DNA of 63,719 bases, counting the filler, from Octopus bimaculoides (Eukaryota), in the NCBI RefSeq assembly GCF_001194135.2. It is 6 parts of 6 records of this genome, joined end to end, with 100 filler letters (N's around TTAATTAATTAA, not from the genome) between each part and the next. Parts side by side here need not be neighbours in the genome. Positions count along the whole stretch, not along the records: positions 21,713 to 35,099 come from NC_069008.1; positions 35,200 to 39,725 come from NC_068989.1; positions 39,826 to 46,519 come from NC_068995.1; positions 46,620 to 58,955 come from NC_069009.1; 2 more parts are not named here. One strand, written 5' to 3'. Made by a program: the position numbers and the translations under genes. The notes below the pieces were generated by a model. That model ran no database searches and was not told the DNA's origin. It saw only the letters and a program-made list of their open reading frames with translations. This document shows, piece after piece, positions 17,880-57,501 of the stretch. Within the stretch, counting starts at the first letter, position 1. Each line of letters starts with the position of its first letter.

Positions 17880-18080
17880 TATGGGGGTTTAGTTTACAGG
17901 TGATCTAAACGATTAGGTACGTTACCTAACGGATTACTAGGGTTTTCTACAAGATCGGAAAGTTGAACAGTGAACTTTGATGCTTCTTTTTTCTTCCCTT
18001 TCTTCATCTCCCTATTCCTTTACCTCTGTCCTCTACGTCGTCATTTCATTAACCTATACGCTTCTCATTTTCCCTCTTTA

Positions 18081-18137
18081 TCTCCGATGACGGTATATCC
18101 CACCATATTCTGGGATATCCCAGAAACAGCTGTAAGA
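18081..18137 (+). ncRNA. Type I hammerhead with U4>C change (family shared with 51026-51081)
   Basis: TCT-CCGATGA-C-10/11-bp stem II-A-GAAA-palindromic ACAGCTGT-A17-AGA. Confidence 0.55.
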
Positions 18138-18230
18138 CTGAATTTTTTTCCAATAATAATATTGTATTTGACATGAGATGTTCACATTGCCTTAACGTTT
18201 GTTGTCCTCTTTAACAATTATATATGTATG

Positions 18231-19592: not shown

Positions 19593-20948
19593 CTTTTACT
19601 TGTTTCAGTCATTACTCTACGGCCATACTGGAGCATCGCCTTGAAGAATTTTTAGCTGAATGAATCAACCCTAATACTTGTCTTTTTTTTAAGCCTAGCA
19701 TTTATTCTATCGGTCACTTGTGCCGAACTGCTCTCTCTCTCTCTCTGTCTCTTTCTCTTCTTCTTCTCTCTCTCTCTCTCTCTAGTCCCGTCAATCTCCA
19801 TAGGTCCTACAGGTGTCCACAGCGATAGTAAAGCTAGACTCCTCTGCATTTACTGTTGGTAGTGTTTCCTTTTCTCTTTTTTACGATTTTATGTTCAGCA
19901 TCGAGATGAGAAAGTCACTATGCATTCTATAGTCTTTGTGTGAAAAATCCTAAATGTTAAATTTTATTTTAATTTGAATCCACCTGAAGAGAGCTGGGTT
20001 TTTTTTTTACATGATGTAACTGACTTGTTCATCAATAAAAACACATCTGAAACAATTGTAGTGAGCCTCAGCCCATTTGTGTAATTATTTATACTACACC
20101 ACACTCGGAACCTTCCCTTCGTTTGGATCTTGAGCCTAAAGGGGACCATGGACTGCATGCCGGCGTATACTCTTGTGATTTTACATATACATCGAATGCA
20201 TTTGATCTATGTTTGTAGATGTATGCGTAACTGGAACGACACATCCGATTATGCTCCAGTAAGTACGTGAGTGTCCTTACACAGTGTTGGTGCGGCTGTC
20301 AATTCATTACAGTTGTTTTAAGCGACTCCTTTAATTGATTAATGAAAACGTTGCATCATTTGAAAGAAGCCGTTCTCGTCAGATGACCGCTTAGATTTCA
20401 AACATATAGGATACAACCATTCCCTTACCATGTTCACAATGATAATGGAACTCAAATTATTTACATTGTTTCTTTTGTCATATATGTGGCAGAATGAGTT
20501 TAGAAAATAATACATTCCTTGTTAAGTGTACCAATATATATANNNNNNNNNNNNNNNNNNNNNNNNNNNNNNNNNNNNNNNNNNNNNNNNNNNNNNNNNN
20601 NNNNNNNNNNNNNNNNNNNNNNNNNNNNNNNNNNNNNNNNNNNNNNNNNNNNNNNNNNNNNNNNNNNNNNNNNNNNNNNNNNNNNNNNNNNNNNNNNNNN
20701 NNNNNNNNNNNNNNNNNNNNNNNNNNNNNNNNNNNNNNNNNNNNNNNNNNNNNNNNNNNNNNNNNNNNNNNNNNNNNNNNNNNNNNNNNNNNNNNNNNNN
20801 NNNNNNNNNNNNNNNNNNNNNNNNNNNNNNNNNNNNNNNNNNNNNNNNNNNNNNNNNNNNNNNNNNNNNNNNNNNNNNNNNNNNNNNNNNNNNNNNNNNN
20901 NNNNNNNNNNNNNNNNNNNNNNNNNNNNNNNNNNNNNNNNNNNNNNNN

Positions 20949-23899: not shown

Positions 23900-24625
23900 G
23901 TATGTATGTATGTATATATATTTATTTATTCACGCATATGTTATTTTTCCGACGTCAATCTTAAACTGTCATATCGTATCCTACTTCCCAGTTGTACTAA
24001 CTGATCATTCTGAAGCATTCTACAGCAATATCTAGCATACAAAAGATCGTCGATTTCAGCAGAACGTCTGCTGTAAAACTTTTATAAAGTCTCTATCTTC
24101 TTTGTTTTGTAGTCCACATAACATTCACTTGTCATCTCCCTGTGTTTTGTCTACAACAAAATATATGTGCCACCATGAGAGAACTCATTGATAAACAAAC
24201 ATTCAAGCGGTGAGTAGAAAATATATCTGCATTGCATCTAACATGTAAACAGACGTCTTTGATATTTAAGACAAGCAGCTGAACCAGAATTCTGTTGAGA
24301 TCCACTTTGCCTGTCAGACTTTAGGAGATAATAAACGCTGTACCACTGAATTACTGGTTTCTCGTTGTTGAAAGGCGCTGAACTGGCAGAAATAGTGGAA
24401 CACCGCACAAAATAAATTGCGGGATTTGTTCTATGTAGCTCTTTATGTTCTAAGTTCAAAACTTGAAAGCTCAAATTTGCCTTTCATATCCCCGGATTCT
24501 ATAAAAGAAATGATGCGTCAAGTATATATGTGGTCTTTGTAATTCTCTGGCCACTTTTCCACTAAAATTGCTGATCCTCATGAATAAATATATGTCAGCT
24601 TTTTAAGACTTGCTCAAGAATTAAT

Positions 24626-25816
24626 ATGGAGAACCTTAAACTAAAAGAGACTCCTACTACTTCTGTTTTTAACAAAATAGATACAATTCAAGATGCAGGC
24701 AGAGATGATACAGATACTGTTGGTGAGACAGACAGAGACGAGAAACCTGTAATTAGTGAAACATTTAGTATAGAAAGATCGTTACAGGGAAATATTACTG
24801 AAATTGAATATAGATGTGATGTCTGTAATAAAACGTTCATTTCAGAAAGTGAAGTCTTCATACACAAAGAAATGCATAATAAAGGGAAGCCCTATCACTG
24901 TGAAATATGTGGGAAATATTTTGCTTATAACAGTTACTTAATTAGTCATCAAAGAATCCATACCGGAGAGAAACCGTTTCGTTGTCAAATATGTGAGAAA
25001 TCTTTCACTCAAAATTCTCATCTTGTTATCCACATACGTAGTCACACTGGAGAGAAACTGTTTCACTGTGAGATATGTCTGAAATCGTTTGTGTCAAATA
25101 GTAATTTGACGAAGCATAAAAGAATACACACCGGAGAAAAACCTTATGATTGTCAAATATGCAATAAGACATTCACTCAGAAATCTCACTTGGTGAATCA
25201 TGTCCGGAGCCATACTGGAGAGAAATTGTTTCCGTGTGAACTGTGCGGGAAATCGTTTGTGTCTAACAGTAATTTAGCAAAGCATGAGAGAATCCATACT
25301 GGAGAAAGGCCTTTCCATTGTGATATCTGTGGGAAATCGTTCTCTGATAATGCTAACCTTGTGGTTCATGAGAAAATACATACTGGCGAGAAGCTGTTTG
25401 ACTGTGATATTTGTGGTAAAGCATTCTTTACTAATTCTAAACTTACAATCCATAAACGTAGTCATACTGGTGAGAAGTTGTTTCATTGTGTTATATGTGA
25501 CAAATATTTTGTGTCGAACAGTGTGTTAACAAAACACAAAAGAATCCACTCTGGAGAAAGACCTTTCCATTGTGAAATATGTGAAAAATCTTTTGGTTCA
25601 AACAGTGACTTGAACCGGCACAGAAGGATACACACTGGAGAAAAACCTTTTCACTGTGATATATGCGGGAAGTCTTTTACTCAAAATACTTGTCTTGTTA
25701 TCCACAGTCGCAGCCACGCCGGAGAAAAACCTTACCATTGTGAAGTGTGTGGCAAATCTTTTGTTGATAAAAGTAATTTAAACAGACACAAACAAACTCA
25801 CACTTGGCCAATCTAA
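24626..25816 (+). CDS. C2H2 (Kruppel-type) zinc-finger protein, 396 aa, 12 tandem fingers, acidic 61-aa N-terminus
   Basis: Uninterrupted ORF with 12 CxxC-x12-HxxxH units joined by TGEKP/TGERP/TGEKL linkers. No KRAB/BTB/SCAN domain recognisable. The true start may lie in an upstream exon. Confidence 0.93.
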   Translation: MENLKLKETPTTSVFNKIDTIQDAGRDDTDTVGETDRDEKPVISETFSIERSLQGNITEIEYRCDVCNKTFISESEVFIHKEMHNKGKPYHCEICGKYFAYNSYLISHQRIHTGEKPFRCQICEKSFTQNSHLVIHIRSHTGEKLFHCEICLKSFVSNSNLTKHKRIHTGEKPYDCQICNKTFTQKSHLVNHVRSHTGEKLFPCELCGKSFVSNSNLAKHERIHTGERPFHCDICGKSFSDNANLVVHEKIHTGEKLFDCDICGKAFFTNSKLTIHKRSHTGEKLFHCVICDKYFVSNSVLTKHKRIHSGERPFHCEICEKSFGSNSDLNRHRRIHTGEKPFHCDICGKSFTQNTCLVIHSRSHAGEKPYHCEVCGKSFVDKSNLNRHKQTHTWPI

Positions 25817-26959: not shown

Positions 26960-27250
26960 ATCATTATCATTTAATGTCCATCATCCATGCTGGCATGGGT
27001 TGGATGGTTCGACCAGAGCTGGAAGGCTGCACGAGACTCTAGTCTGATTTGGCATGATTTCTATGGCTGGATGCTCTTCCTAACGCCAACCACTCAGAGA
27101 GTGTAATGGGTGCTTTAATGTGCCACCGGCACAGGTACCATTTGCATGACACCGATATCTGCCACGACTGCCATTTTACTTGGCTTGATGGGTCTTCTTC
27201 TTAAAGATGACATTATGCCAAAGGTCTCGGTCATTGCCTCCGTGAGGCCC
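26960..27250 (-). mobile_element. RTE-type LINE 3' fragment (ORF2 C-terminus plus 3' UTR)
   Basis: Minus strand LGLTEAMT / DRDLW motif, followed by the same 3' UTR as the other RTE copies. Confidence 0.65.
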
Positions 27251-28193
27251 AACACTTGAAAGGAGCTCGGTCACTTTGCCTCCGTGAGGCCCAACACTTG
27301 AAAGGAGCTCGGTCACTTTGCCTCCGTGAGGCCCAACACTTGAAAGGAGCTCGGCCACTTTGCCTCCGTGAGGCCCAACACTTGAAAGGAGCTCGGTCAC
27401 TTTGCTNNNNNNNNNNNNNNNNNNNNNNNNNNNNNNNNNNNNNNNNNNNNNNNNNNNNNNNNNNNNNNNNNNNNNNNNNNNNNNNNNNNNNNNNNNNNNN
27501 NNNNNNNNNNNNNNNNNNNNNNNNNNNNNNNNNNNNNNNNNNNNNNNNNNNNNNNNNNNNNNNNNNNNNNNNNNNNNNNNNNNNNNNNNNNNNNNNNNNN
27601 NNNNNNNNNNNNNNNNNNNNNNNNNNNNNNNNNNNNNNNNNNNNNNNNNNNNNNNNNNNNNNNNNNNNNNNNNNNNNNNNNNNNNNNNNNNNNNNNNNNN
27701 NNNNNNNNNNNNNNNNNNNNNNNNNNNNNNNNNNNNNNNNNNNNNNNNNNNNNNNNNNNNNNNNNNNNNNNNNNNNNNNNNNNNNNNNNNNNNNNNNNNN
27801 NNNNNNNNNNNNNNNNNNNNNNNNNNNNNNNNNNNNNNNNNNNNNNNNNNNNNNNNNNNNNNNNNNNNNNNNNNNNNNNNNNNNNNNNNNNNNNNNNNNN
27901 NNNNNNNNNNNNNNNNNNNNNNNNNNNNNNNNNNNNNNNNNACACTTGAAAGGAGCTCGGTCACTTTGCCTCCGTGAGGCCCAACACTTGAAAGGAGCTC
28001 GGTCACTTTGCCTCCGTGAGGCCCAACACTTGAAAGGAGCTCGGTCACTTTGCCTCCGTGAGGCCCAACACTTGAAAGGAGCTCGGCCACTTTGCCTCCG
28101 TGAGGCCCAACACTTGAAAGGAGCTCGGTCACTTTGCTTCCGTGAGGCCCAACACTTGAAAGGAGCTCGGCCACTTTGCCTCCATGAGGCCCA
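27237..28193. repeat. 42-bp minisatellite (at least 10 visible units, gap in the middle)
   Basis: Unit CACTTGAAAGGAGCTCGG(T/C)CACTTTGCCTCCGTGAGGCCCAA starts at 27253, 27295, 27337, 27379 and 27943, 27985, 28027, 28069, 28111, 28153. Confidence 0.97.
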
Positions 28194-28320
28194 ATGCTCA
28201 TAGGGTGCTCTTTACTTGACACCAGCATCTGCCACGACGACAACTTCACTTGGCTTGCACAGGTCTTCTCAAGCGCAGCATATCACCTTAGGTCTCAGCC
28301 ATTAGCCATTGCCTCTGTAA

Positions 28321-30530: not shown

Positions 30531-30749
30531 GTTTGCTCAATGTTTATTTTCTGGTCAGTCCAAATTATCCTTTTTCAAAATTGATTCAGGACTGGAAATA
30601 CTAATTTATTAATCTTTTTTGTTACCTTATTTCTGTTGAAAAACACAGCCTTTGTTGCAATTAGTTTTGAAAATAAAAAAGAATTTAATAAAATAATATT
30701 GTTATTAATTCGTTTTGCAAGATTTTGGCAAAAATAAAAATAATAATTC

Positions 30750-31142
30750 GAAATATTGCATTTCTTAATCTCTCGGAGAGACTTATACGGTAGCAGCACA
30801 ATAAAGTTATGGTTTGTTGCCCACTTAATGTGGCAATCCCAGGAAAGGGAAGAATACTACTGCTATTTAGTCCCAGGAAACATCATTTCTTGTTGGCTAC
30901 ATGACACAAGTCCCTTTCCTGGGACTGCCACATTAAATTGGCAACAAACCATCACTTTATTGTGCTGCTACTGTATAAGTCTCTCAGAGAGATTCAGAAT
31001 TTCAATATTTCTCATTTTGTAGATCAGTAAATTTGTTTCACTTGAAATTCTATAAGCTTTCAACAGTGAATAAGCATCGACAGCTAGCAAGCCAAGCTAC
31101 TCCAGACTGATGGAGGGCAATGACTCTGAAACTAGTCTCTCG
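30750..31142. mobile_element. Inverted pair of hammerhead-bearing ~350-nt repeat units
   Basis: 94-bp arms at 30750-30843 and 30918-31011 are inverted at roughly 88% identity (by eye). The right copy continues into a hammerhead and is homologous to 57169-57487 (reverse). Confidence 0.7.
31102..31142 (+). ncRNA. Minimal type I hammerhead with A9>G
   Basis: AGA-CTGATGG-AGGG/CTCT stem II-GAAA-palindromic ACTAGT-C17 (GUC)-TCT. Confidence 0.55.
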
Positions 31143-32214
31143 ATACTGGGTTTGTTGGGTGGAGGTGGTGTTCATCTCCGCTGTTTGAAAACTTTAGGAT
31201 ACAGAATATTGTTATTATTAAGCTGGTGTTTGAAACTTAATAGGAAATTTTAATAGGAAGCTTTTAATTTTACTAGGGAGCTAGAAGAGATGCTGAATAA
31301 CAGGTATATTTAGGAAGAGAATCACAAAGAAAGAGGTTTGAAGATGTTCTACAATGTAAGGACCAGAAACAAGCTGGATTAAGCCCCACTGAGGCCCTAA
31401 GTACTCAAAAAGATTTTGGTAACTCCCATAAAAGATTATGCAATTCAAATATAAACAATAACAAACCGTGAAATAAATTTTTATATTTTAAAACGAAACA
31501 AAACGGTAAGAGGGAAAATAATGTTTATTTTTGTATACTTCCGCTTTATTTAGATTTGAAAAGTTTCCTCCTACTTTTTTGAATTGCAAAGTCTTTGAAT
31601 CAGATCCTCAAAATTAATAATCTTAGGTAACACATCTGTATCTATACTTAGTAGAGATAAAGGCAGCTTGAATATTACTTTAGCAAGTTTAAAGTGATTT
31701 CTTTTGTGCTCTAAACCATTTACCATTTCTGTGGTGCCCCCCCACTTTCCCTTGATTCCTTAAGCACGTACTTATTCTGCTTAATGGTTAATCCAGTGCT
31801 GTCCATCAGGAATGCTTAAAATATCTTGCAGGGTAGATTACAGCCTAGTCACCCATACAGTTTATCAGATACAAGAATGTCTGGTTCTAATGTCAGCATC
31901 AACTTTTACAAGGAATGCTTTAGAAGGAAGTAATTAGATACGTCTAAAGATGGCTGGACCAGAAAGAGTTTTAGCTTAATTAGGAAAAGACAGCACTAGA
32001 TTAACCATTAAGCGAAATAAGCACATGCTGAGGGCATCACAGAAATGGTAAATAGTTTACGGTACAAAAGAAATCACTTTAAGCTTTGTCAAATATTATT
32101 TGAAATGGTTTATATGATCGGAAACATAATTTCAAGTGTTCATGATGTCATGGCAATAAAAAAGGTAAGAGAAAACTTTTCATGTGCATGAGCAACAGAG
32201 TATGACTATGTGTA

Positions 32215-32445
32215 AAGAAAAATTGGGCTTAAGAATCACCAGATGTGGTGTTCAAGGAAGAAGACTGCTGGTTGGGTCATGTGAGACATAATGAAACACC
32301 AATTGCTAAATGTTGATGGAACCTGAAGTGGAAGACCTAGAAAGATATAGAATAAAGTAACAACGACTTGCCTCAGGATGTTGAGCCTCTCAGAGTGGAT
32401 GACAAACGACCAAGATGATTGGTGATTCACAAGGCTTGTCCATAT
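32215..32445 (+). mobile_element. Degenerate RTE-type LINE ORF2 C-terminal fragment
   Basis: GLRITRCGVQGRRL.WLGHVR...SGRPRK...LSLSEWMTNDQDDW motifs. Confidence 0.55.
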
Positions 32446-32749
32446 CAGTAAAAACGAGGTCCTAAACCTGTAACATTTATATCCGTGCCATTGAATATCT
32501 GTGGTGAAGGCTTTACCTATCACACCTTCACCATGGCTTATCTTCCTGTCACCATCAGTACATAGACATTTAGAAAGGGCTCATAAACATTGAGTAATAA
32601 GGTAAACATGTGTGAGTATTTATAGGAAAAAATTACCCTCTTTCATCAAAATGATGGGTGAGGGTCATATAGACGGTTAATTGGTTGTCATTAGAGCATT
32701 AGATGGAATGCCATGCATTTTTTAAAGCCATTTCTTAAATAGAAATACA

Positions 32750-33058
32750 GTATGAATGCCCCATTGTATGAGCTGAGACACGTGCAAATCTTGAAGTACA
32801 AGCAGAAATCCGTAGTACGAGCAACACAAATTATCCCATCTTTCAGGTAATTCAGTGAATAAAATCAGTTTACATATTTCGTTTGCATTCTGTTTTAAAA
32901 CCCCTAAAAAATTATTTTTGTGTGGTTTTTCGGAAGCTGGAACGGATTTATTATATTCTAGTTAAATTCAATGGGGAAATTGGTTTGTAAAATGAGTAAA
33001 TCATAAGACGATCTCTGTCAAGGAACAAATTAAACTCGTACTGCGAGGTATCACTCTT
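32750..33058. mobile_element. Tigger/pogo-like MITE remnant
   Basis: Right end GGAACGGATTTATT...AATGGGGAAATTGGTTT...GGAACAAATTAAACTCGTACTGCGAGGTATCACT resembles Tigger termini; the left end is weak. Confidence 0.4.
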
Positions 33059-47257: not shown

Positions 47258-47531
47258 TGTTGTTGTACTTGGGGATAGTCATATTGCCAGTTTAGGCAAT
47301 AAAAACACACGCACCATTTGGCTGATAGTTAGCAAGGTGGGACACACATAAGAAAGAAGAAAGCAAAATACCACTGATGAGGTCACAGAAGTGTGACGAA
47401 AGAACTCTGGCCGAAATAGGATTAATGTAATGTAATGTAATATAAAGCTGAAGCAAATTAACACCAAATATACAGTGCGTGTGTTTTTATTGCCTAAACT
47501 GGCAATATGACCATCCCCAAGTACAACAACA
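47258..47531. repeat. 57-bp inverted repeat (one mismatch) enclosing a hammerhead
   Basis: Arms at 47258-47314 and 47475-47531. Confidence 0.9.
47371..47410 (+). ncRNA. Minimal type I hammerhead, complete core
   Basis: CCA-CTGATGA-G-GTCACA/GAAG/TGTGAC-GAAA-GAAC-T-C17 (CUC)-TGG. Stem III has only 2 bp with a 2-nt loop. Confidence 0.6.
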
Positions 47532-47682
47532 TATATATGTAATGTTATAATAAAAACCCACAAGTCTTGTTAACAAGTTGCATTTTACAAGACTTGTGAT
47601 TTTTATGACATCATCTTTACTCGCTTAGCTGACTGAGTGTTATTCTTCTTGATGAAGCCTTACCACATAAAAAATATATATA

Positions 47683-49177
47683 AAGGGTGTCTTGAAATTA
47701 AGGCAAACGAAGTTTTGGGCTTTAATAACTATCAATAAATGTGATAAGATATGAAAATTATACATCATTATAAAAGCTTAGTATATCTCCTTTTTGTTTC
47801 AGACTAAATAAATTAAGATTTATAAATTAGATAATGGCTGTAGATCAAAATACAATCATAACCCTCCACAAAAGTGATGAAAGTAATGCAGCTATAGCAA
47901 AAAAACTTAAAATTAACCAAACATTCTGGAAAATTGTCAAGAATTGTCTTCAGGGTTTGCTTTTGGCCCTTCTCATTATACCTCCTTTTCTCCCTCTCCC
48001 CCCCTTTCCTACAGCTTCTCTACTTCCTCAGCACCCCTTCTCATCATTATGCACCTCACATACCCATAGGAGACCCATACACTGCTCTTTTTTTCACTGA
48101 CTCCCTCAGCCTTTCTCTCCATCCAAATTTATTCCTCTCTTTCAGTCACCCTAACCCTTTCTCATTCTCTCCCCTTCTAATATAGGATTACCCTAGACCG
48201 CTGATCCATCTGGACATTGCCAAAAAAGAAGTGTATGGACTCCTCAGCTTATGAAAAGTACCAGAGAAAAGATATGGCAAAATCCTCATTGTTCTGTCAG
48301 AAAACTGGCTGTCACAGCAGAAATAAGCTGAACATCGATGTATCAGGTGCTAAAGGAGGATCTCAGGACCCATCCCCTAAAACATGATGCACTGTCATGA
48401 TCTCATGCAAGTTTATATGTCCATGAGACTGGAGAGAAGTCGTCTTATCCTGCATCACATTACTGAAAGCATGCTGCCCAACTTGGTTTTCACTGATGAA
48501 AAGAAATTTGACATCAAACAGACAGTAAGCCATCAGAATGACCAACTTTGGAGTGCATCTGCCTCTTTCGAGGGTAGACTCATAATTTGACATCAAAATC
48601 TACAGTCAGTTATGGTTTGGGTGGTTGTGACAGCCACTGAAAGGTCTCTCCTCGTTTTTGTGCCCTCGGGTTTTAAAATTAGCACTCAGGGATATGTTAG
48701 TGACATTCTGGAGGCTGAACTGCTTCCATGGGTGAATGAGCACTTTGAAGGTGCATCTTGGAGCCTCCAACAGGACTTGCCACCATCCCACAGCTCCAAA
48801 TAGACACAACACTGGATTCAGAAAAATATTCCGTCACTCATAGGCAAGGTTGTATGGCCCTCAAGAAGTCCCAATCTCAACCTGTTGAATTTTTCTATTT
48901 GGTCCATTTTGGAAACAAGGGTCTCCAGCACTTCTCATGCTTTGTTTGATGCTCTGCAAGCAAAACTGTGCAGGAACAGTTGCGTGCCACGTGTGAAGCA
49001 TTTGTACCTAGACTTAAGGCTGTGATTCAAAACAGAGGTAGTTACATTGAATAAATGTGGTAGTGTCATAATTGTGTTTCCCTTACCATTGCATTGAAGC
49101 ACTTGGACCCAGAATATAACAATATTTGGTGTGGCAAAACTGAAAACACTTGGTCGACTTAATTTAGGGACACCCTG
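47683..49177 (+). mobile_element. Defective maT (DD37D) Tc1/mariner-superfamily transposon with ~240-bp internal insertion
   Basis: TA|AAGGGTGTCTTGAAATTAAGGC ... GACTTAATTTAGGGACACCCTG|TA. N-terminal HTH at 47834, FTDEKKF, QQD-37 aa-(D>N) within SPNLNLLNF. Stops and frameshifts present. Confidence 0.85.
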
Positions 49178-49293
49178 TATATGCAGGCAAATCAAAAAAA
49201 AAAAAAAATGCAAAAATAACAATAGTCAAAAGGACACACACAGTGAATGCATTAGGTTGACACTCAGTTTAAGATGGAAAAAAGAGGTGGAGT

Positions 49294-49320
49294 GATGTTT
49301 TGAGCATGATTCTTCATCAG
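49294..49320 (-). ncRNA. Decayed minimal hammerhead
   Basis: CTGATGAA-GA.ATCATGC.TC-AAAA-CATC, consistent with CpG decay of GCTCGAAACGTC as seen at 55870-55881. Confidence 0.35.
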
Positions 49321-50639
49321 AAAGAAGAGAAAAGGTCTGGAGAGAATAGAAAAAAATAGTCCTAATATATATATATATACATACATACATACATACATAT
49401 ACATATATTATCCATCTAAAGGTCATGGATCAGTACATTATATATACATACATATAAACAATAAACTAGATAGAGAGATTCAATTGACAATCTAATAATT
49501 TATTTATGTTATAATGCAACATAATATACTAATATAACATTAAAAAATCATTAAAAAACCAAAATAGCCAACAATTTATTTTGACTTATATACATCCAGA
49601 CAGTTAGGTGATGCAAAAAAGCGACAAGAAAACATCCAGATAGACAATACAAGGAAACAAGGACAAGTCAATAGGAGTTTTCTTTCCTCAGTCGAGTTCC
49701 AGATTATCTTTGCAATTTTGGCTGGTTATACTCGAGATTGCTCCAATCTGGCCAGCCCTAAGGGAAAACTAAGCTAAGAGCATTAGATTCCTTGGAAGAA
49801 AGCAGCGAATGTATATAAAAAAAAAAAAACGAAAAAAAAAAAACAGAATGTTACACAAATACAAAAAAACAGGACATAACAACAGCTGTCTTTTGACTAA
49901 GGACGAAGTAAATTAAGCTGGCGTGTGTGGAAGTGAAGCCTTACGGCAAGGATACAAGTTTTCACAGGCACAGAGAGGAATATAGATGTTGCACGGATAA
50001 CGGCCGAACCAAGAAAGAAAGGTCAGGCTTGGCCAAACACCGGTCACGTGGGGGGAGAGAAGAGAGAGAGGTAGAGGCAGAGGGACAGTAGAAATAAGGA
50101 GGGACAAGAAAAAAAAAAATGAAAGAGACACAGTGAAGTGAAAGAGGAGGGAAAGTGAGCATGAAGAGAAGGCCAGGAAATGTGAGAGAAGGGGAACAAA
50201 AGAACGAAGAGTGGAATGAACGAAGGAAGCGTGAAAGGGCTGATAGAAAGAAGGAAAGAATAGAAAGAATAATAGAGTCGTACAAAATTTAGATATATAN
50301 NNNNNNNNNNNNNNNNNNNNNNNNNNNNNNNNNNNNNNNNNNNNNNNNNNNNNNNNNNNNNNNNNNNNNNNNNNNNNNNNNNNNNNNNNNNNNNNNNNNN
50401 NNNNNNNNNNNNNNNNNNNNNNNNNNNNNNNNNNNNNNNNNNNNNNNNNNNNNNNNNNNNNNNNNNNNNNNNNNNNNNNNNNNNNNNNNNNNNNNNNNNN
50501 NNNNNNNNNNNNNNNNNNNNNNNNNNNNNNNNNNNNNNNNNNNNNNNNNNNNNNNNNNNNNNNNNNNNNNNNNNNNNNNNNNNNNNNNNNNNNNNNNNNN
50601 NNNNNNNNNNNNNNNNNNNNNNNNNNNNNNNNNNNNNNN

Positions 50640-50679
<40 letters not shown>

Positions 50680-50681
<2 letters not shown>

Positions 50682-50810
50682 ATAATAAATCTCTGAGTGA
50701 GTAGCAGCATGACATCATGAAGTATATTTGCCACCTAAATGTGGCTGATCCATATGGGACAATGCTATTCTACTTTATAGCCCCAGGAAGACATCTCCTC
50801 CAGCTGGTGG
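50680..50810 (-). mobile_element. Diverged fragment of the ~350-nt hammerhead repeat family
   Basis: AATCTCTGAGTGAG TAGCAGCA...AAATGTGGC...TTTATAGCCCCAGGAAGACATC resembles 30765-30890. Confidence 0.45.
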
Positions 50811-51025
50811 TTTAGTTCACAGGTAATCTAAATGATTAGGTATGCTAGGTAAGTGTTGTAATGGACTACTAGAGTTCTAGTGTTATAACTGAGATGGTTA
50901 TGGAGTTATGGAGCCATTGCAGATTTCTGATGCAGTGGATATATGATTGTTAAAGAGAACAACAAACATTATGGCAAGGCAAACATCTCAAATCATATAC
51001 AATATTATTACTGGAAAAACTCAAA

Positions 51026-51081
51026 GTCCTACAGCTGTTTCCAGGATATCCCCAATTATGGGATATTCCGTCATCAGAGAC
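51026..51081 (-). ncRNA. Type I hammerhead, complete core
   Basis: GTCT-CTGATGA-C10.1...G11.1 (about 10-bp stem II)-GAAA-palindromic ACAGCTGT-A17 (GUA)-GGAC. Confidence 0.7.
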
Positions 51082-51154
51082 AAATAGGGAAAAATAGGGA
51101 AAATGAGAATGGTGTATATTACCGAGATGACAGCATAGAAGAAGGGAGTAAAAG

Positions 51155-52481
51155 AATTTCCTTTATCTTCCCTTTGATGTCTTCTGATACTGTTCCCAAG
51201 AACCCAACAATAATTGGCACTATCTTCACCTTCTTCATTTTCCAGAGCCAGGCTCATACTTAAGAGGGTGGTATCTTTTCACTTTCCTTCTTGACTATTC
51301 GTGGGTCAAAGGAGCATACAATATCAACTATGTAGCATATACGGTGCACCTTGTCTACCACTACTAGGTCTGGTCTGTTATGCTCTAGCATCTAATCTGT
51401 TTGGATTGGGAAATCCCAGAGGATTTTGCTAGTCTTCAACTCTGCCACTCTCTGTCGTTTCTGTTCATACCACATTTTGCCTCTCTTTAGCCCCCATTTT
51501 TTTCACAGTTTCCAATGTAGCATTTTCACTAAGTGGCCGTGTTGCAACAACTTGTAGTGGTTTTGGGCAAATCTAGGGCATTCGTTTGTGATATGGACAA
51601 TGATTTCATTCACTCTATTGCAGATGTGGCGCAGTGGAGACACTTGCTCATTCCTAAGGTTGACCCTCCAGTTCGTAGCCAAAGCTTGGCCTTGCGCTGT
51701 CAGCATAATGCACTCAGTCTCTTTTTTTAGTGTTCCTTTCATCAGCCGATCCCACCCATTTTTTCCAGCAACTTCTGTTGTGGCTGCATGGAACTGATTG
51801 TGTAGTCCCTTCTTGCGTAATTCTTCTTCATGCCCTTTTTGCACTTCTTCCTTTGTTTTCCCTTTTTTCTCTGCTTTTAATACTTCCTTGTTCCTAACTG
51901 TTACTAGCAAAGTTTCCTTACTTTGCGCCAGGTATCTCATTAAACTCTCGAGTTCGATACNNNNNNNNNNNNNNNNNNNNNNNNNNNNNNNNNNNNNNNN
52001 NNNNNNNNNNNNNNNNNNNNNNNNNNNNNNNNNNNNNNNNNNNNNNNNATGTTTCTGGCATTTAGCTTTGAGGCCAATATTTTCTCACCCGCCGCAGGTA
52101 CTCTCTTTTTGTTTTTTTCCTTCATGTCATTATATTTGCTTCCATCTGCCTCAAGTATTCCCAGTATTTATAGCTGGATTGAGGTTGAATTTCATCACTT
52201 GGCAATCATATGCCCTCTGTCTTGGCCAGCTTTCCTCACCTCATCACCATCGTAGCACATTTTGGGAGTCCAAACTCTATCAATGGAGAAAATCCACACA
52301 GACTGGACTAGGCTGTCCAGTTCTGCTTCAGTTTCTGTGAATAGCTTCAGGTCGTCCATGAATAGCAAGTGGTTCAGTTTTCCCTTATATACCCCAACTT
52401 CATTTTCTGTAGAATTTCACCCAATGGGATCATTCCCAGCATAAATATCAGTGGGGACACGCTGTCACATTGGAAGATTCC
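51155..52481 (-). mobile_element. R4/Dong-clade non-LTR retrotransposon fragment (RT C-terminus, CCHC-like region, REL endonuclease), degenerate
   Basis: GIFQCDSVSPL, HLLFMDDLKLF, LKKETE...AQGQALATN, HITNECP, ILWDFPIQTD..HNRPDLVV, VPIIVGFLGTV. Confidence 0.75.
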
Positions 52482-52494
52482 TATTATTATTATT

Positions 52495-53288
52495 GTTCAG
52501 TAGTTTTATTTTTATAATGTGCTTTCACTTCACTACTGAGTGCAGCTCTGTGTGCCTTGGGTATGTGCTATAGTTTGCTGTGATGCTCTTATGGTTACTG
52601 TATTGAAAGTGTTTTGCGTAGGATGTGTGCAGTGCCCAGTAGTGCAATTTTCTGTATGTTATATATATTTGTAAGTCCTGGTGTTTTTGTTATGTATTTG
52701 TCTGAATATTTTTTTATTATACCTAGGTTACCTACTATGATAGGAATTGTTTCTGTTTTTAGATTCCACATTCGAGTTACCTCTATTTCCAGGTCTTTGT
52801 ATTTTGAAAGTTTTTCCATTTCTTTTAGGGAAACGTTGTCATCTGCTGGTATTGATACATTAATTAGAAAGCATTTTTTTTCTTCATGATCTTTGACAAC
52901 TATATCTGGTCTATTTGCCTTAATTTCTCTATCTGTGTGTATTGACATATCCCAGAGTATGGTTGCTTTCTCGTTTTCTGTGACCTTTTCTGGCGTGTGT
53001 TTATACCATCTTTTTTCTGTTGTTATTCCATAGTGTTGGCATAGCATCCAGTGTATATAGGTCCCAGCTCTGTCGTGTCTGTGAATATATTCCTTCTTAG
53101 CCAGGACTGGGCAGCCAGAGATAATGTGATTTATNNNNNNNNNNATACCATCTTTTTTCTGTTGTTATTCCATAGTGTTGGCATAGCTTCCAGTGTATAT
53201 AGGTCCCAGCTCTGTCGTGTCTGTGAATATATTCCTTCTTAGCCAGGACTGGGCAGCCAGAGATAATGTGATTTATTGTTTCTTGTCC
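52495..53288 (-). mobile_element. 5'-truncated R4/Dong-clade retrotransposon (zinc-knuckle end, REL endonuclease, 3' UTR) flanked by (TAA)n
   Basis: ETINHIISGCP..., NRPDIVV...INVSIPAD...KEMEKLSKYKDL...LGTAHILRK. (ATT)n at 52483-52494 and 53290-53400. Confidence 0.85.
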
Positions 53289-53327
<39 letters not shown>

Positions 53328-54591
53328 CTTTAATGTTATTATTATAATAATTGTTATTATCATTATTATTACTATAATCATCATCATCATCATCATTATT
53401 GTTTTCATATACTATTTCCTGTTTATATCCTGTGTGAGAAAGCCAAATTGTAAAAGTGAGAGTATGAATTGAAAATATCTACATTTGCCAAAAGTTGTAT
53501 AATTCTACTTGAAATACCTTAAGCTAAAGAATTAATAATGGATGGGGTGTTATTGGAAAATTTGCTAACATATTTAGTGATTTTACATGGTTTTCTGTAT
53601 GGATAGCAGAGTCTGGATTTTAGGTTTAACGAGACATCTAAAAAGTTAACTAATTTCGTACCAAGTTCAAAAGTTAAGTCTCAGTTAAAGTTATAGAACA
53701 ATTTCTTAATTTTTTGGCACATTCTTTCAAGTATAACTTTGCTATTAGTGAGTCTGACAAAGACAGTGTCATCTCTATATAGACCACCATGAAGATCTGG
53801 GAAATCACTTGCCAGCAATGCAAAAGGTAGATTCCTACAATATTGGTAAACTGGGCTAAGTCACTCAATCCTCTTACTATATCAAAATTGTCAGGGGTGT
53901 TGCTTCTCGTCCACAGTCTACCTTCAAATTCAATTATAGTTCTAGCTAATAAAATAATTTCAATCTTATCTTTAGTAATGGGTGGGAAGTTTCTTGCATA
54001 AATTAGGGCCTTGTTTAGGAGTGTGTGGGATATATTTGAATAGTATGCATCTATATCAAATTGAAGGAACGAGTACTTCTATTCTGTAATAATGTAAACC
54101 AGGTTATGACTTAGTTTAATTTCTGGAGTAAATTTAGGTATGATCAGTTGGCTTAGTAAGTCTACCCTAGATAAGATCATGCCTAAACTTACTCCAAAAA
54201 TGCATACTTGCATGGTATGCTATATTGAAGGAACTAACCCCTAAATCCTGTGTATCTCTGCCCTTCACCCTTTGTCCTTTAGCTAGCGAATCCTAAACCC
54301 TGAGCCTAGACCTAATTGGCTTGTATGTTTTTATTTTTCTTCACCCTTACCTTTGCTTTCTTTATTATTTCTTTCTTTAGCCTTAATTTATATTAGGACC
54401 TCGCCTTGCTACCCACTGCTCTAAGCCTACTATGATGAAATATCACCTACACCCCACTCCAGCCTATGTTAGAACCAGTCTAGCAGACACCTATCTCATC
54501 TGGGTCCTTAGATATCATATTACACACTTTCAAGAATTATATTCTTAACCTGCTGTATTCTTGGGATATTATTTTGTTTGTAAAATTACAT

Positions 54592-54677
54592 TTCAGCTGA
54601 TGATTACGGTTTTTTTGTAATGGAGTAATGTTCTCATTCTTCTCTTGAAAAGATGCGTAAGAAACAGCTGTAATGAG
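54592..54677 (+). ncRNA. Type I hammerhead with long loop II, complete core
   Basis: CTGATGA 54597-54603, stem II TTACG/CGTAA closing a 47-nt loop, GAAA 54661-54664, ACAGCTGT palindrome, GUA triplet. Stem I opens with an A-G mismatch, then 4 bp. Confidence 0.55.
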
Positions 54678-54752
54678 CTGACAATTATCCATTGTGTGCT
54701 ATTATTTATTTATTTATGTGTGTGTGTATGTATGTATGTATGCCATTCTCTG

Positions 54753-54986
54753 TACATCGGACAAACGGTGCGCCGCTTGGTCGACCGATTCGCGGAACAC
54801 CTCTGAGACATCAACGTTTGCAATGACACCCTGGTGTCACGCCATTTCCGCTCTGCCGGTCACTCCTTGCAGCAACACCTGTCCGTATTTGGATTGTCCA
54901 TGCACAGGGGCCATCCGGACTCCCGTTTGCGCCGTGAACAGGGATTAATCTTCTCTCTTTGCTCCTTTACGCCACATAGGCTCAAC
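54753..54986 (+). mobile_element. Penelope-like element GIY-YIG endonuclease C-terminal fragment
   Basis: YIGQTVRRLVDRFAEHL*DI...RHFRSAGHS...RLRREQGLIFSLCSFTPHRLN followed by a C-rich tail. Confidence 0.75.
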
Positions 54987-55862
54987 TCCCCTCCCCTCTT
55001 CATCTAACCCCTCCCCCTTTGCCATCCCTCCTACTTCCTCCCACCCNNNNNNNNNNNNNNNNNNNNNNNNNNNNNNNNNNNNNNNNNNNNNNNNNNNNNN
55101 NNNNNNNNNNNNNNNNNNNNNNNNNNNNNNNNNNNNNNNNNNNNNNNNNNNNNNNNNNNNNNNNNNNNNNNNNNNNNNNNNNNNNNNNNNNNNNNNNNNN
55201 NNNNNNNNNNNNNNNNNNNNNNNNNNNNNNNNNNNNNNNNNNNNNNNNNNNNNNNNNNNNNNNNNNNNNNNNNNNNNNNNNNNNNNNNNNNNNNNNNNNN
55301 NNNNNNNNNNNNNNNNNNNNNNNNNNNNNNNNNNNNNNNNNNNNNNNNNNNNNNNNNNNNNNNNNNNNNNNNNNNNNNNNNNNNNNNNNNNNNNNNNNNN
55401 NNNNNNNNNNNNNNNNNNNNNNNNNNNNNNNNNNNNNNNNNNNNNNNNNNNNNNNNNNNNNNNNNNNNNNNNNNNNNNNNNNNNNNNNNNNNNNNNNNNN
55501 NNNNNNNNNNNNNNNNNNNNNNNNNNNNNNNNNNNNNNNNNNNNNNNNNNNNNNNNNNNNNNNNNNNNNNNNNNNNNNNNNNNNNNNNNNNNNNNNNNNN
55601 NNNNNNNNNNNNNNNNNNNNNNNNNNNNNNNNNNNNNNNNNNNNNNNNNNNNNNNNNNNNNNNNNNNNNNNNNNNNNNNNNNNNNNNNNNNNNNNNNNNN
55701 NNNNNNNNNNNNNNNNNNNNNNNNNNNNNNNNNNNNNNNNNNNNNNNNNNNNNNNNNNNNNNNNNNNNNNNNNNNNNNNNNNNNNNNNNNNNNNNNNNNN
55801 NNNNNNNNNNNNNNNNNNNNNNNNNNNNNNNNNNNNNNNNNNNNNNNNNNNNNNNNNNNNNN

Positions 55863-55975
55863 GAGCGTAGCTCGAAACGTCAAAGACTTTCCGTATTCCC
55901 GAGCGTCATACTAATACATCCTTTTGTTGTTTACACCACCTGTCCTCGTCTGTTGTTGTTTTTTTCGTAAATTCG
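55863..55975 (+). mobile_element. Penelope-type terminal repeat with 3' half of a hammerhead (5' half in gap)
   Basis: GAGC-GTA-GCTC hairpin, GAAA at 55874-55877, CGTC (ACGT palindrome, GUC triplet). Confidence 0.5.
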
Positions 55976-55976
55976 C

Positions 55977-56011
<35 letters not shown>

Positions 56012-56015
<4 letters not shown>

Positions 56016-56892
56016 GTCTGATCAATAAGTATCCGGATTGTTGCCATAGTAACAAAGCTAAAGCATGCAGAGTGAAGCTGCTGGCATACATTGACCAGGC
56101 CCTGCTATGCATGTGCACCAAGTTTTGTTGTTCTAGCTCACTTCCACTGCTTACAGCAGTGCTTGGAAGGAACGTGTGTAGTGTATGATCATCGCATTGA
56201 CCATGACAGAGAAAGTTTTCGTGGCGATACCTGCTCAGAGGCCTATGCAAGGTTGCAGAAAGTGTATGGAGAGGAGTCTATGAGTCACTCACAGGTATAT
56301 GAGTGGTTCAGATGTTTCCAAGATGGCCAAAAACATGTTGATATTGATGAACATTCTGGGAGACCCACAACCAGCAGAACTGAGAAAAGCATTGCAGCGG
56401 TGTGAGCAACTGTGAGGGGAAATCATCAAATAACCATCCTTGAGTTATCAGAGGATGTGCAGATTAGTTGCAGTTCAGTTCGGTCCTTTATCACTGAAGA
56501 TTTGGGAATGAGATGTGTCTGTGAAATTTGTGTCAAAACTGCTTTCAGCTGACCAAAAAGACACTCAGGTTTCAGTTGCACAAGATCTCCTTGATTGTGT
56601 TGAGAACAATGGCAAAAACCTTTTTGAAAACTTTGCATAGGCCTCTGAACAGGTCTCACCAAGCATTTGGTAAAATTTGATGCAGATTCTCTGCTCAACT
56701 TTCTCTGTCATGGTCAATGTGATGATCACATGCTACACACGTTCCTTCAAATCACTGCTGGAAATAGAAGTGAGCTAGAGTGTTAAAACTTAGTGCACAT
56801 CCACAGCAGAGTTCAAAGTCAATCTGTGGCATGCAGCTTTATTCTGCATGCTTTAGCTTCATTACTATGGCAACAGTCCAGATACTTATCAA
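56012..56892 (+). mobile_element. Non-autonomous mariner derivative with long inverted arms
   Basis: TA|TGAGGTCTGATCAATAAGTATCC... Transposase N-terminus CSEAYARLQKVYGEESMSHSQVYEWF...DEHSGRP. 56630-56892 is an inverted copy of the first ~250 bp; the right terminus is in a gap. Confidence 0.8.
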
Positions 56893-57168
56893 NNNNNNNN
56901 NNNNNNNNNNNNNNNNNNNNNNNNNNNNNNNNNNNNNNNNNNNNNNNNNNNNNNNNNNNNNNNNNNNNNNNNNNNNNNNNNNNNNNNNNNNNNNNNNNNN
57001 NNNNNNNNNNNNNNNNNNNNNNNNNNNNNNNNNNNNNNNNNNNNNNNNNNNNNNNNNNNNNNNNNNNNNNNNNNNNNNNNNNNNNNNNNNNNNNNNNNNN
57101 NNNNNNNNNNNNNNNNNNNNNNNNNNNNNNNNNNNNNNNNNNNNNNNNNNNNNNNNNNNNNNNNNNNN

Positions 57169-57487
57169 GTATATTGTCAACTTAATGTGACAATCCCAAT
57201 AAGGGAACACACTACTGCCGTTTAGCCCTAGGAAGCTGGACCGCTTCCTGTCGGCCTTGACACAATTACTGTGTCCTTAAGTTTGCGAAGGGGAGACAAG
57301 CTCCTCCACCCAGCCTAGCCAGCATTCAGGGACATGTTTCTGAGTCTTTGCTCGTCATCAGCCTGAAGTAGCTTGCCAGCTGGATAGAGAGGCCTGTCTC
57401 TCCTTCGCAAACTTATGTAAATCATAGTGAAGTTCATTCACTGATCAGCAAAATTAGAAATATAATATTTCTAAATCTCTCTGAGAG
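57169..57487 (-). mobile_element. Near-complete monomer of the ~350-nt hammerhead repeat (candidate non-LTR retrozyme)
   Basis: Homologous to 30750-31142 and 34966-35099; contains a rod-like hairpin with a hammerhead. Confidence 0.65.
57325..57367 (-). ncRNA. Minimal type I hammerhead, complete core
   Basis: Stem I TTCAGG/CCTGAA (6 bp), CTGATGA, C-GAG/CTC-A stem II, GAAA, palindromic ACATGT, GUC triplet (cut between + 57331 and 57330). Confidence 0.7.
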
Positions 57488-57501
57488 TGGATTTGGTAGA
57501 C

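Follow-up and report, generated by a model that had tools for sequence, protein, structure and literature searches.

Five pieces of a short repeat with hammerhead ribozyme motifs lie scattered over 63,719 nt of Octopus bimaculoides DNA (the window, made up of six joined parts, with coordinates counted along the whole stretch), which raises the question of what kind of element they derive from and how that element came to be inserted. The initial annotation took them for a retrozyme-like family without long terminal repeats (LTRs), mobilized by a Penelope-type reverse transcriptase (RT), a proposal that is supported here by a closed non-coding unit, a type I hammerhead motif and several insertion marks. 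We consider it likely that the repeat is a many-copy, non-coding 350-nt retroelement with a type I hammerhead motif, non-autonomous and presumably dependent on Penelope, that is, a non-LTR retrozyme.

The repeat unit and its copies

Comparison by blastn and pairwise alignment placed all five pieces in one repeat family, at the positions named beforehand. The most intact copy (57169-57487, minus strand), delineated by blastn, read mapping and folding, comprises 319 of 350 nt and has a GC content of 44.8%. On the plus strand it reads block B, hammerhead, block A, as first described; since the hammerhead itself lies on the minus strand, the order in RNA is A, 5′ arm, hammerhead, 3′ arm and B, followed in the complete unit by linker C. 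A gap of Ns extends from 57168 and a different repeat adjoins the other end at 57488. A 5′-truncated copy on the plus strand (30911-31212) runs from the middle of B through C, A and the hammerhead into the 3′ arm, spanning the C-A unit junction, with 72% identity (163/225) to 57487-57262. Its inverted orientation and its own hammerhead were correctly recognized at the outset, while its extent was not, as it continues beyond 31142 to 31212.

Head-to-head with this copy lies a minus-strand partner (30745-30910) containing B, C and the first ~35 nt of A, which is identical to it at 113 of 129 aligned letters. The same segments make up the copy at 34964-35099 (minus strand), which terminates in (TA)n and whose 5′ side enters a gap of Ns; with these bounds, the A-C-B order proposed for the plus strand holds for both. 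The fifth piece (50690-50811, minus strand), previously noted as diverged, contains B, C and the start of A and ends near (TA)n, ~15 nt before the other two; its alignment to 34964-35099 scores 79.5, compared with 46.5 for the best of 1000 shuffles. Within block B, 57169-57236 shares 90% identity with 35030-35097 and 78% with 30812-30879.

The unit is non-coding, as had been claimed: the longest stop-free frame in 57169-57487 has 40 codons and the copies often differ by 1-nt insertions (31 of 140 reads at 57207 and 22 of 115 at 57210). A coding reading of B-C, with an FLGLN...WDCH-like frame, was dropped owing to its stops and to these insertions, and so was that of a Penelope open reading frame (ORF) after 31212, where no such frame is present. 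Downstream of the copy ending at 31212 no RT or endonuclease frame was found, the nearest coding remnant being hAT-like by eye, and none of the copies at 30745-31212, 34964 or 57169 has an RT and GIY-YIG ORF beside it. The hAT-like remnant contains, by eye, an inverted duplication at 31670-32100. Metagenome scans gave no match to the family motifs.

Closure of the unit was assessed in four of 24 listed public runs, X24, X16, X2 and X15 among them, aligned to 57169-57490 at a likeness of at least 80%; summed contig depth was not taken as copy number. The RNA-seq sample yielded 516 accepted records out of 12,895,792, which points to transcription of the family, read-through or DNA carry-over being possible sources as well. 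Twelve of these reads, with 12 different starts, cross a joint from 57487 to 57169 over 31 letters, and 14 further RNA reads fall in three neighbouring joint rows. The same joint occurs in one of 33 contigs of X16 (RNA-type), which covers B-C-A-hammerhead over 306 nt with 10 differences, and in three of 2266 DNA contigs of X2; among the 119 contigs of X15 it was not found, and eight loose ends there read into C. These 31 letters are similar to linker C as it stands in the window. The unit length, 319 + 31, is exactly 350 nt, inside the range of ~150-450 nt for non-LTR retrozymes, the remaining arm-to-B link being supplied by the window copy at 57169-57487. The predicted linker and closed unit of ~350 nt are therefore seen directly in RNA reads, in one RNA-type contig and in DNA contigs. 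As the joint is present in DNA too, it provides no evidence of circular RNA, and a back-splice-like junction at the GUC site would be equally non-discriminating because re-ligation would restore the tandem genomic sequence. With 316 of the 516 RNA reads less than 90% alike to the 57169 copy, most reads come from diverged relatives.

The hammerhead motif and its fold

The most intact copy carries a type I hammerhead with an intact core (57325-57367, minus strand), in which CUGAUGA starts at 57361 and cleavage is predicted after C57331. In this motif (57361-57331), helix I has 6 bp, helix II has 3 bp above a C-A mismatch and a loop of 6 nt, and helix III is a palindrome of 2 bp; the core segments read CUGAUGA, GAAA and GUC. 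Its counterpart on the plus strand (31101-31143, motif 31107-31137, cut predicted after 31137) is degenerate, with CUGAUGG in place of CUGAUGA and one C-C mismatch in helix I, and to judge from these changes has probably decayed; of the two hammerheads originally annotated, one is thus intact and the other mutated in its core.

As a control for chance occurrence, a structural descriptor was run on the window and on 200 shuffles, retrieving three hammerheads from the former and one each from four of the latter (0.02 per shuffle). The first pair of helix I is G-C in one copy and A-U in the other, and both partner sites vary alike in the reads, counted site by site (60 of 178 at 57330 and 55 of 159 at 57362). 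None of the 40 listed variant sites lies inside the 57331-57361 core, with 88 further sites beyond those listed. The excess over shuffles, the exchange of the helix I pair and the sparing of the core by the listed variants together point to a ribozyme under selection.

A long stem of ~55 bp (57272-57420, minus strand) continues helix I and is retained in the 31050-31200 copy despite changes in sequence; comparison of these two sequences shows both partners altered in 8 of 36 predicted pairs. Block B (57169-57240, minus strand) forms two small hairpins kept across the five copies, with two-sided changes at 4 of 10 pairs and a covariation term near zero. The fold of 57169-57487 has a predicted energy of -134.9 kcal/mol (z -9.6), a stability reached by none of 100 shuffles. 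The 30911 copy folds with a z of -1.4, yet its outer stem is kept with altered letters. The RNAalifold consensus fold did not yield the active hammerhead, whose energy in the 57169 copy is ~7.5 kcal/mol above that of the minimum-energy fold.

A further hammerhead-like motif, CUGAUGA...GAAA with a short helix I (47366-47415, plus strand), is retrieved by a loose pattern and not by the strict descriptor; it sits between inverted segments at ~47200-47330 and ~47450-47570.

Insertion marks and competing explanations

Three copies have visible 3′ ends, two of them located ~35 nt into A and the third ~15 nt earlier, with the start of A set by one locus only. Two of these ends adjoin (TA)n and the third an AT-rich run. 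At the inverted locus 30745-31212, the end of the plus copy corresponds to unit position 57262, and the start of the minus copy falls no more than ~4 nt away from it, a coincidence with a chance of ~3% for that margin on a 350-nt unit. The two halves total ~468 nt, or 1.3 units, which supports closure of the unit independently of the reads, and the matched breakpoints imply a template longer than one unit. Three opposite-strand joints were also detected in DNA contigs. A 13-nt direct repeat on the plus strand (30695-30707 with 31205-31217), 38 nt from the end of the left copy, is a candidate target-site duplication; repeats of that length arose in 12 of 5000 shuffles. If a single event made both halves, inversion of the 5′ portion of a 1.3-unit template would match the layout that twin priming produces in L1. 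The literature search found no paper pairing twin priming with pseudo-LTRs.

The altered block orders that had been described as circular permutation are real, and they are better explained by a template of more than one unit that was truncated to varying extents on its 5′ side and kept a common 3′ end than by random starts on a circle. Inverted 5′-truncated copies, partial tandems, tails of 30-40 nt and (TA)n targets have been described for Penelope-like elements (PMC8557442), and for a lizard Penelope, priming has been demonstrated at fixed positions inside RNA that had not been cut (PMC11167929).

On this basis, a plausible route would begin with head-to-tail source loci transcribed into more-than-unit RNA. 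A Penelope-type endonuclease/RT would then nick AT-rich or (TA)n DNA, and cDNA synthesis would be primed within the unit, preferentially ~35 nt from the start of block A, giving a fixed 3′ end and variable 5′ ends, while a second priming event on the same RNA may have produced the inverted locus 30745-31212. Because helix III has only 2 bp and is palindromic, self-cleavage is predicted to depend on dimers (PMC4209133): a lone ribozyme would be weak, and cutting would occur through two units folded together. Such cutting could release 350-nt monomers, which a host ligase could circularize (PMC7229834). Going by analogous elements in mussel, coral and axolotl, dimer-dependent cutting, monomer release and circularization by ligase are slightly favoured over their absence.

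A number of observations weigh against the retrozyme reading or some part of it. The 516 records correspond to ~40 reads per million and are not biased towards either strand. RNA ends do not pile up at the predicted cut site, a weak negative in fragmented paired reads; no record with two tandem hammerheads was seen in reads, contigs or window, no contig among those listed spans the full unit, and a search covering 24000-63719 revealed no 350-nt tandem array. Rfam returned no hammerhead family for the whole window at E ≤ 1 or for 57169-57500 at E ≤ 10. As to the 40 variant sites listed, predicted pairing is disrupted at 15 and preserved at 8, 4 make up two compensating pairs and 13 are unpaired. 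No autonomous element sharing the ends of the unit was found and, in the lizard Penelope, insertion did not need ribozyme cleavage (PMC11167929).

The fate of the reads beyond the unit bears on the same question. Of the aligned RNA reads, 76% continue into unlike sequence, depth drops at least tenfold over 57378-57443 in X24, X16 and X2 and by a smaller factor in X15, no joint bridging 57372 to 57454 was found in the aligned runs, and one 551-nt contig extends 469 nt beyond the 5′ arm, no return to A being listed for it. Consequently, the 350-nt form is shown only for one subfamily, and longer forms, including an ORF-bearing parent, may exist. The pieces could then be, for the most part, pseudo-LTRs and 3′ termini of an autonomous Penelope-like element of greater length, with block A as its 5′ start and the 350-nt unit as a minor internal-deletion derivative. 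This explanation, which we regard as unlikely while the strongest of those considered against a retrozyme, would account for the main departure points of the reads (118 at 57372 and 69 at 57454) and for the loose parts of 255-469 nt in contigs; Penelope elements natively show inversion, a fixed 3′ end and insertion at (TA)n, and Penelope protein remnants lie nearby. On the other hand, the 30-letter loose ends resemble, by eye, the 5′ arm and post-A sequence of the window itself, which suggests that they belong to another, diverged subfamily. Furthermore, two subfamilies ~28% apart keep the spacing from A through the arm to the hammerhead and both close the arm to B, no RT or endonuclease frame follows 31212, and the ribozyme, with a helix I of 6 bp and a short helix II, is of the canonical repeat-borne kind and not of the minimal Penelope type with long helix II (PMC4209133).

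The presence of the unit junction in DNA, the permuted fragments that any tandem array would give and the lack of visible RNA processing in the aligned runs are also compatible with a satellite-like repeat spread at the DNA level, by recombination or extrachromosomal DNA circles, with the hammerhead as a relic. The common 3′ end, variable 5′ ends, (TA)n neighbours, matched breakpoints and candidate duplication are instead marks of retro-insertion and the listed variants spare the ribozyme core, making this origin very improbable. Finally, a miniature inverted-repeat transposable element or fold-back DNA transposon, suggested by the long inverted repeat at 30745-31016 if the palindrome is taken for terminal inverted repeats, is largely refuted, as its arms meet head-to-head without a spacer and at one locus only, the other three copies being unpaired and lacking such terminal repeats, and as the block order closes into a tandem unit. 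The 350-nt repeat behaves like, and probably is, a non-LTR retrozyme.

Neighbouring elements and relation to known retrozymes

Directly upstream of the diverged copy at 50690-50811 lies a second hammerhead element with a long helix II (50805-51170, minus strand), the core of which starts at 51077. A further copy at 17882-18218 shares 82% identity with it over 158 nt; that locus is an inverted piece fused to a direct piece, with microsatellites on either side and a CCGAUGA core. The helix III of the second element is in the style listed for Hydra-clade Penelope elements (PMC8557442 supplement). On the same strand, ~2.3 kb upstream of the second hammerhead and ~2.6 kb from the 50690 piece, lies a broken Penelope-type RT fragment (53430-54080), which appears Hydra-clade-like by eye against the Hydra-1_Obim rows, matches one homologue, P0001, at 42% over 86 amino acids and was not recognized in a Pfam search. 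A broken GIY-YIG C-terminus of a Penelope-like element follows on the plus strand (54730-55046; weak Pfam match, E 0.21); beyond it a pyrimidine-rich tract enters a gap of Ns, with related DNA at 20297-20404. Between the RT fragment and the second hammerhead are two fragments of long interspersed nuclear elements (LINEs) with restriction-like endonuclease (51200-53400, minus strand; weak zf-RVT match), which from their motifs we take to be R4/Hero-like.

The region 50690-54080 could be one interrupted Hydra-clade element sharing its 3′ end with the retrozyme, but it is just as possible that 50690-50811 is a piece of retrozyme that landed at the end of the second element. That the retrozyme and a Hydra-clade Penelope represented by this remnant share a 3′-terminal B-C module, as a pair resembling short interspersed nuclear elements and LINEs with different ribozymes, is a tentative idea that we hold to be rather doubtful, given that the shared module is seen at one locus only and that the inverted piece at 17882-18218 stops just short of B, so that the adjacency of B-C at 50690 may be a separate insertion. 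If true, such a pair would name the mobilizing partner of an animal retrozyme, and would show insertion from uncut more-than-unit RNA, fixed internal priming and twin priming at 30745-31212.

The rest of the window is microsatellite-rich, gapped animal DNA with LINE, mariner and Penelope remnants, the mariner component being an HTH_48 fragment at 56076-56405 (E 5e-9). Five tRNA-Pro(TGG) genes occupy both strands of 1252-6904, within 5.7 kb, an open frame of 410 codons at 24584-25816 (plus strand) contains 12 C2H2 zinc fingers, and minisatellites with 42-bp and 71-bp units are found at 27226-28194 and 37213-37838, respectively.

Non-LTR retrozymes of metazoans have units of 350-390 bp in Mytilus galloprovincialis and of 330/350 bp in the axolotl (PMC7229834). 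Compared by description and not by sequence, the octopus repeat resembles them in its type I hammerhead, short palindromic helix III and 350-nt non-coding unit, in its GC content (44.8%, compared with less than 45%), in its strongly self-paired RNA and in forming a heterogeneous multi-copy family. Both have a mismatch at the base of helix II, U-U in the axolotl retrozyme and C-A in the octopus unit; the latter letters also occur at the matching position in one hammerhead of the PMC8557442 supplement. Unlike those elements (PMC7229834), the octopus copies seen here are dispersed, truncated and inverted, with no arrays among them.

Animal retrozymes have been proposed to be non-autonomous Penelope derivatives in a preprint whose sampling, in its available part, comprises 31 vertebrates, three insects, one anthozoan and no mollusc (bioRxiv 10.64898/2026.07.22.740005). 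The octopus family shares with the preprint families this proposed origin and partner, and solo or truncated copies are common there as well. 'Active' is defined in that preprint as two consecutive units with hammerheads, and one of nine Xenopus dimers was cleaved in vitro, for which reason activity of the octopus hammerhead is not to be assumed. With the pseudo-LTRs of endonuclease-containing (EN+) Penelope elements, the octopus copies have in common an inverted 5′-truncated copy, a partial tandem, a seemingly fixed 3′ end, a (TA)n preference and a hammerhead near the 3′ end (PMC8557442, PMC4209133, PMC11167929), whereas the octopus unit has no ORF. Its hammerhead also differs from that listed for Hydra-1_Obim (PMC8557442), and five short family motifs are absent from the available supplement text of that paper, where line breaks could hide a match.

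The family, at first considered possibly undescribed in its lineage, is of a kind already in print, including mollusc units of 350-390 bp (PMC7229834) and the link to Penelope (bioRxiv 10.64898/2026.07.22.740005). The literature searched contains no report of a cephalopod retrozyme, which the supplements of PMC7229834 and of the preprint, Dfam or Repbase could hold; the main text of PMC7229834, as available, mentions neither cephalopods nor Octopus, and the word 'ribozyme' is absent from the available text and supplement of an octopus repeat paper (PMC13282606). As both the class and the Penelope hypothesis have been published, the octopus repeat is an incremental addition to the non-LTR retrozymes. 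It would extend them to the octopus lineage, and its copies record a mode of insertion with the signatures of Penelope: a common 3′ end, targets of (TA)n and an inverted locus whose breakpoints match. The repeat therefore bears on which machinery moves animal retrozymes, and on whether a circle or an uncut multimer serves as the template.

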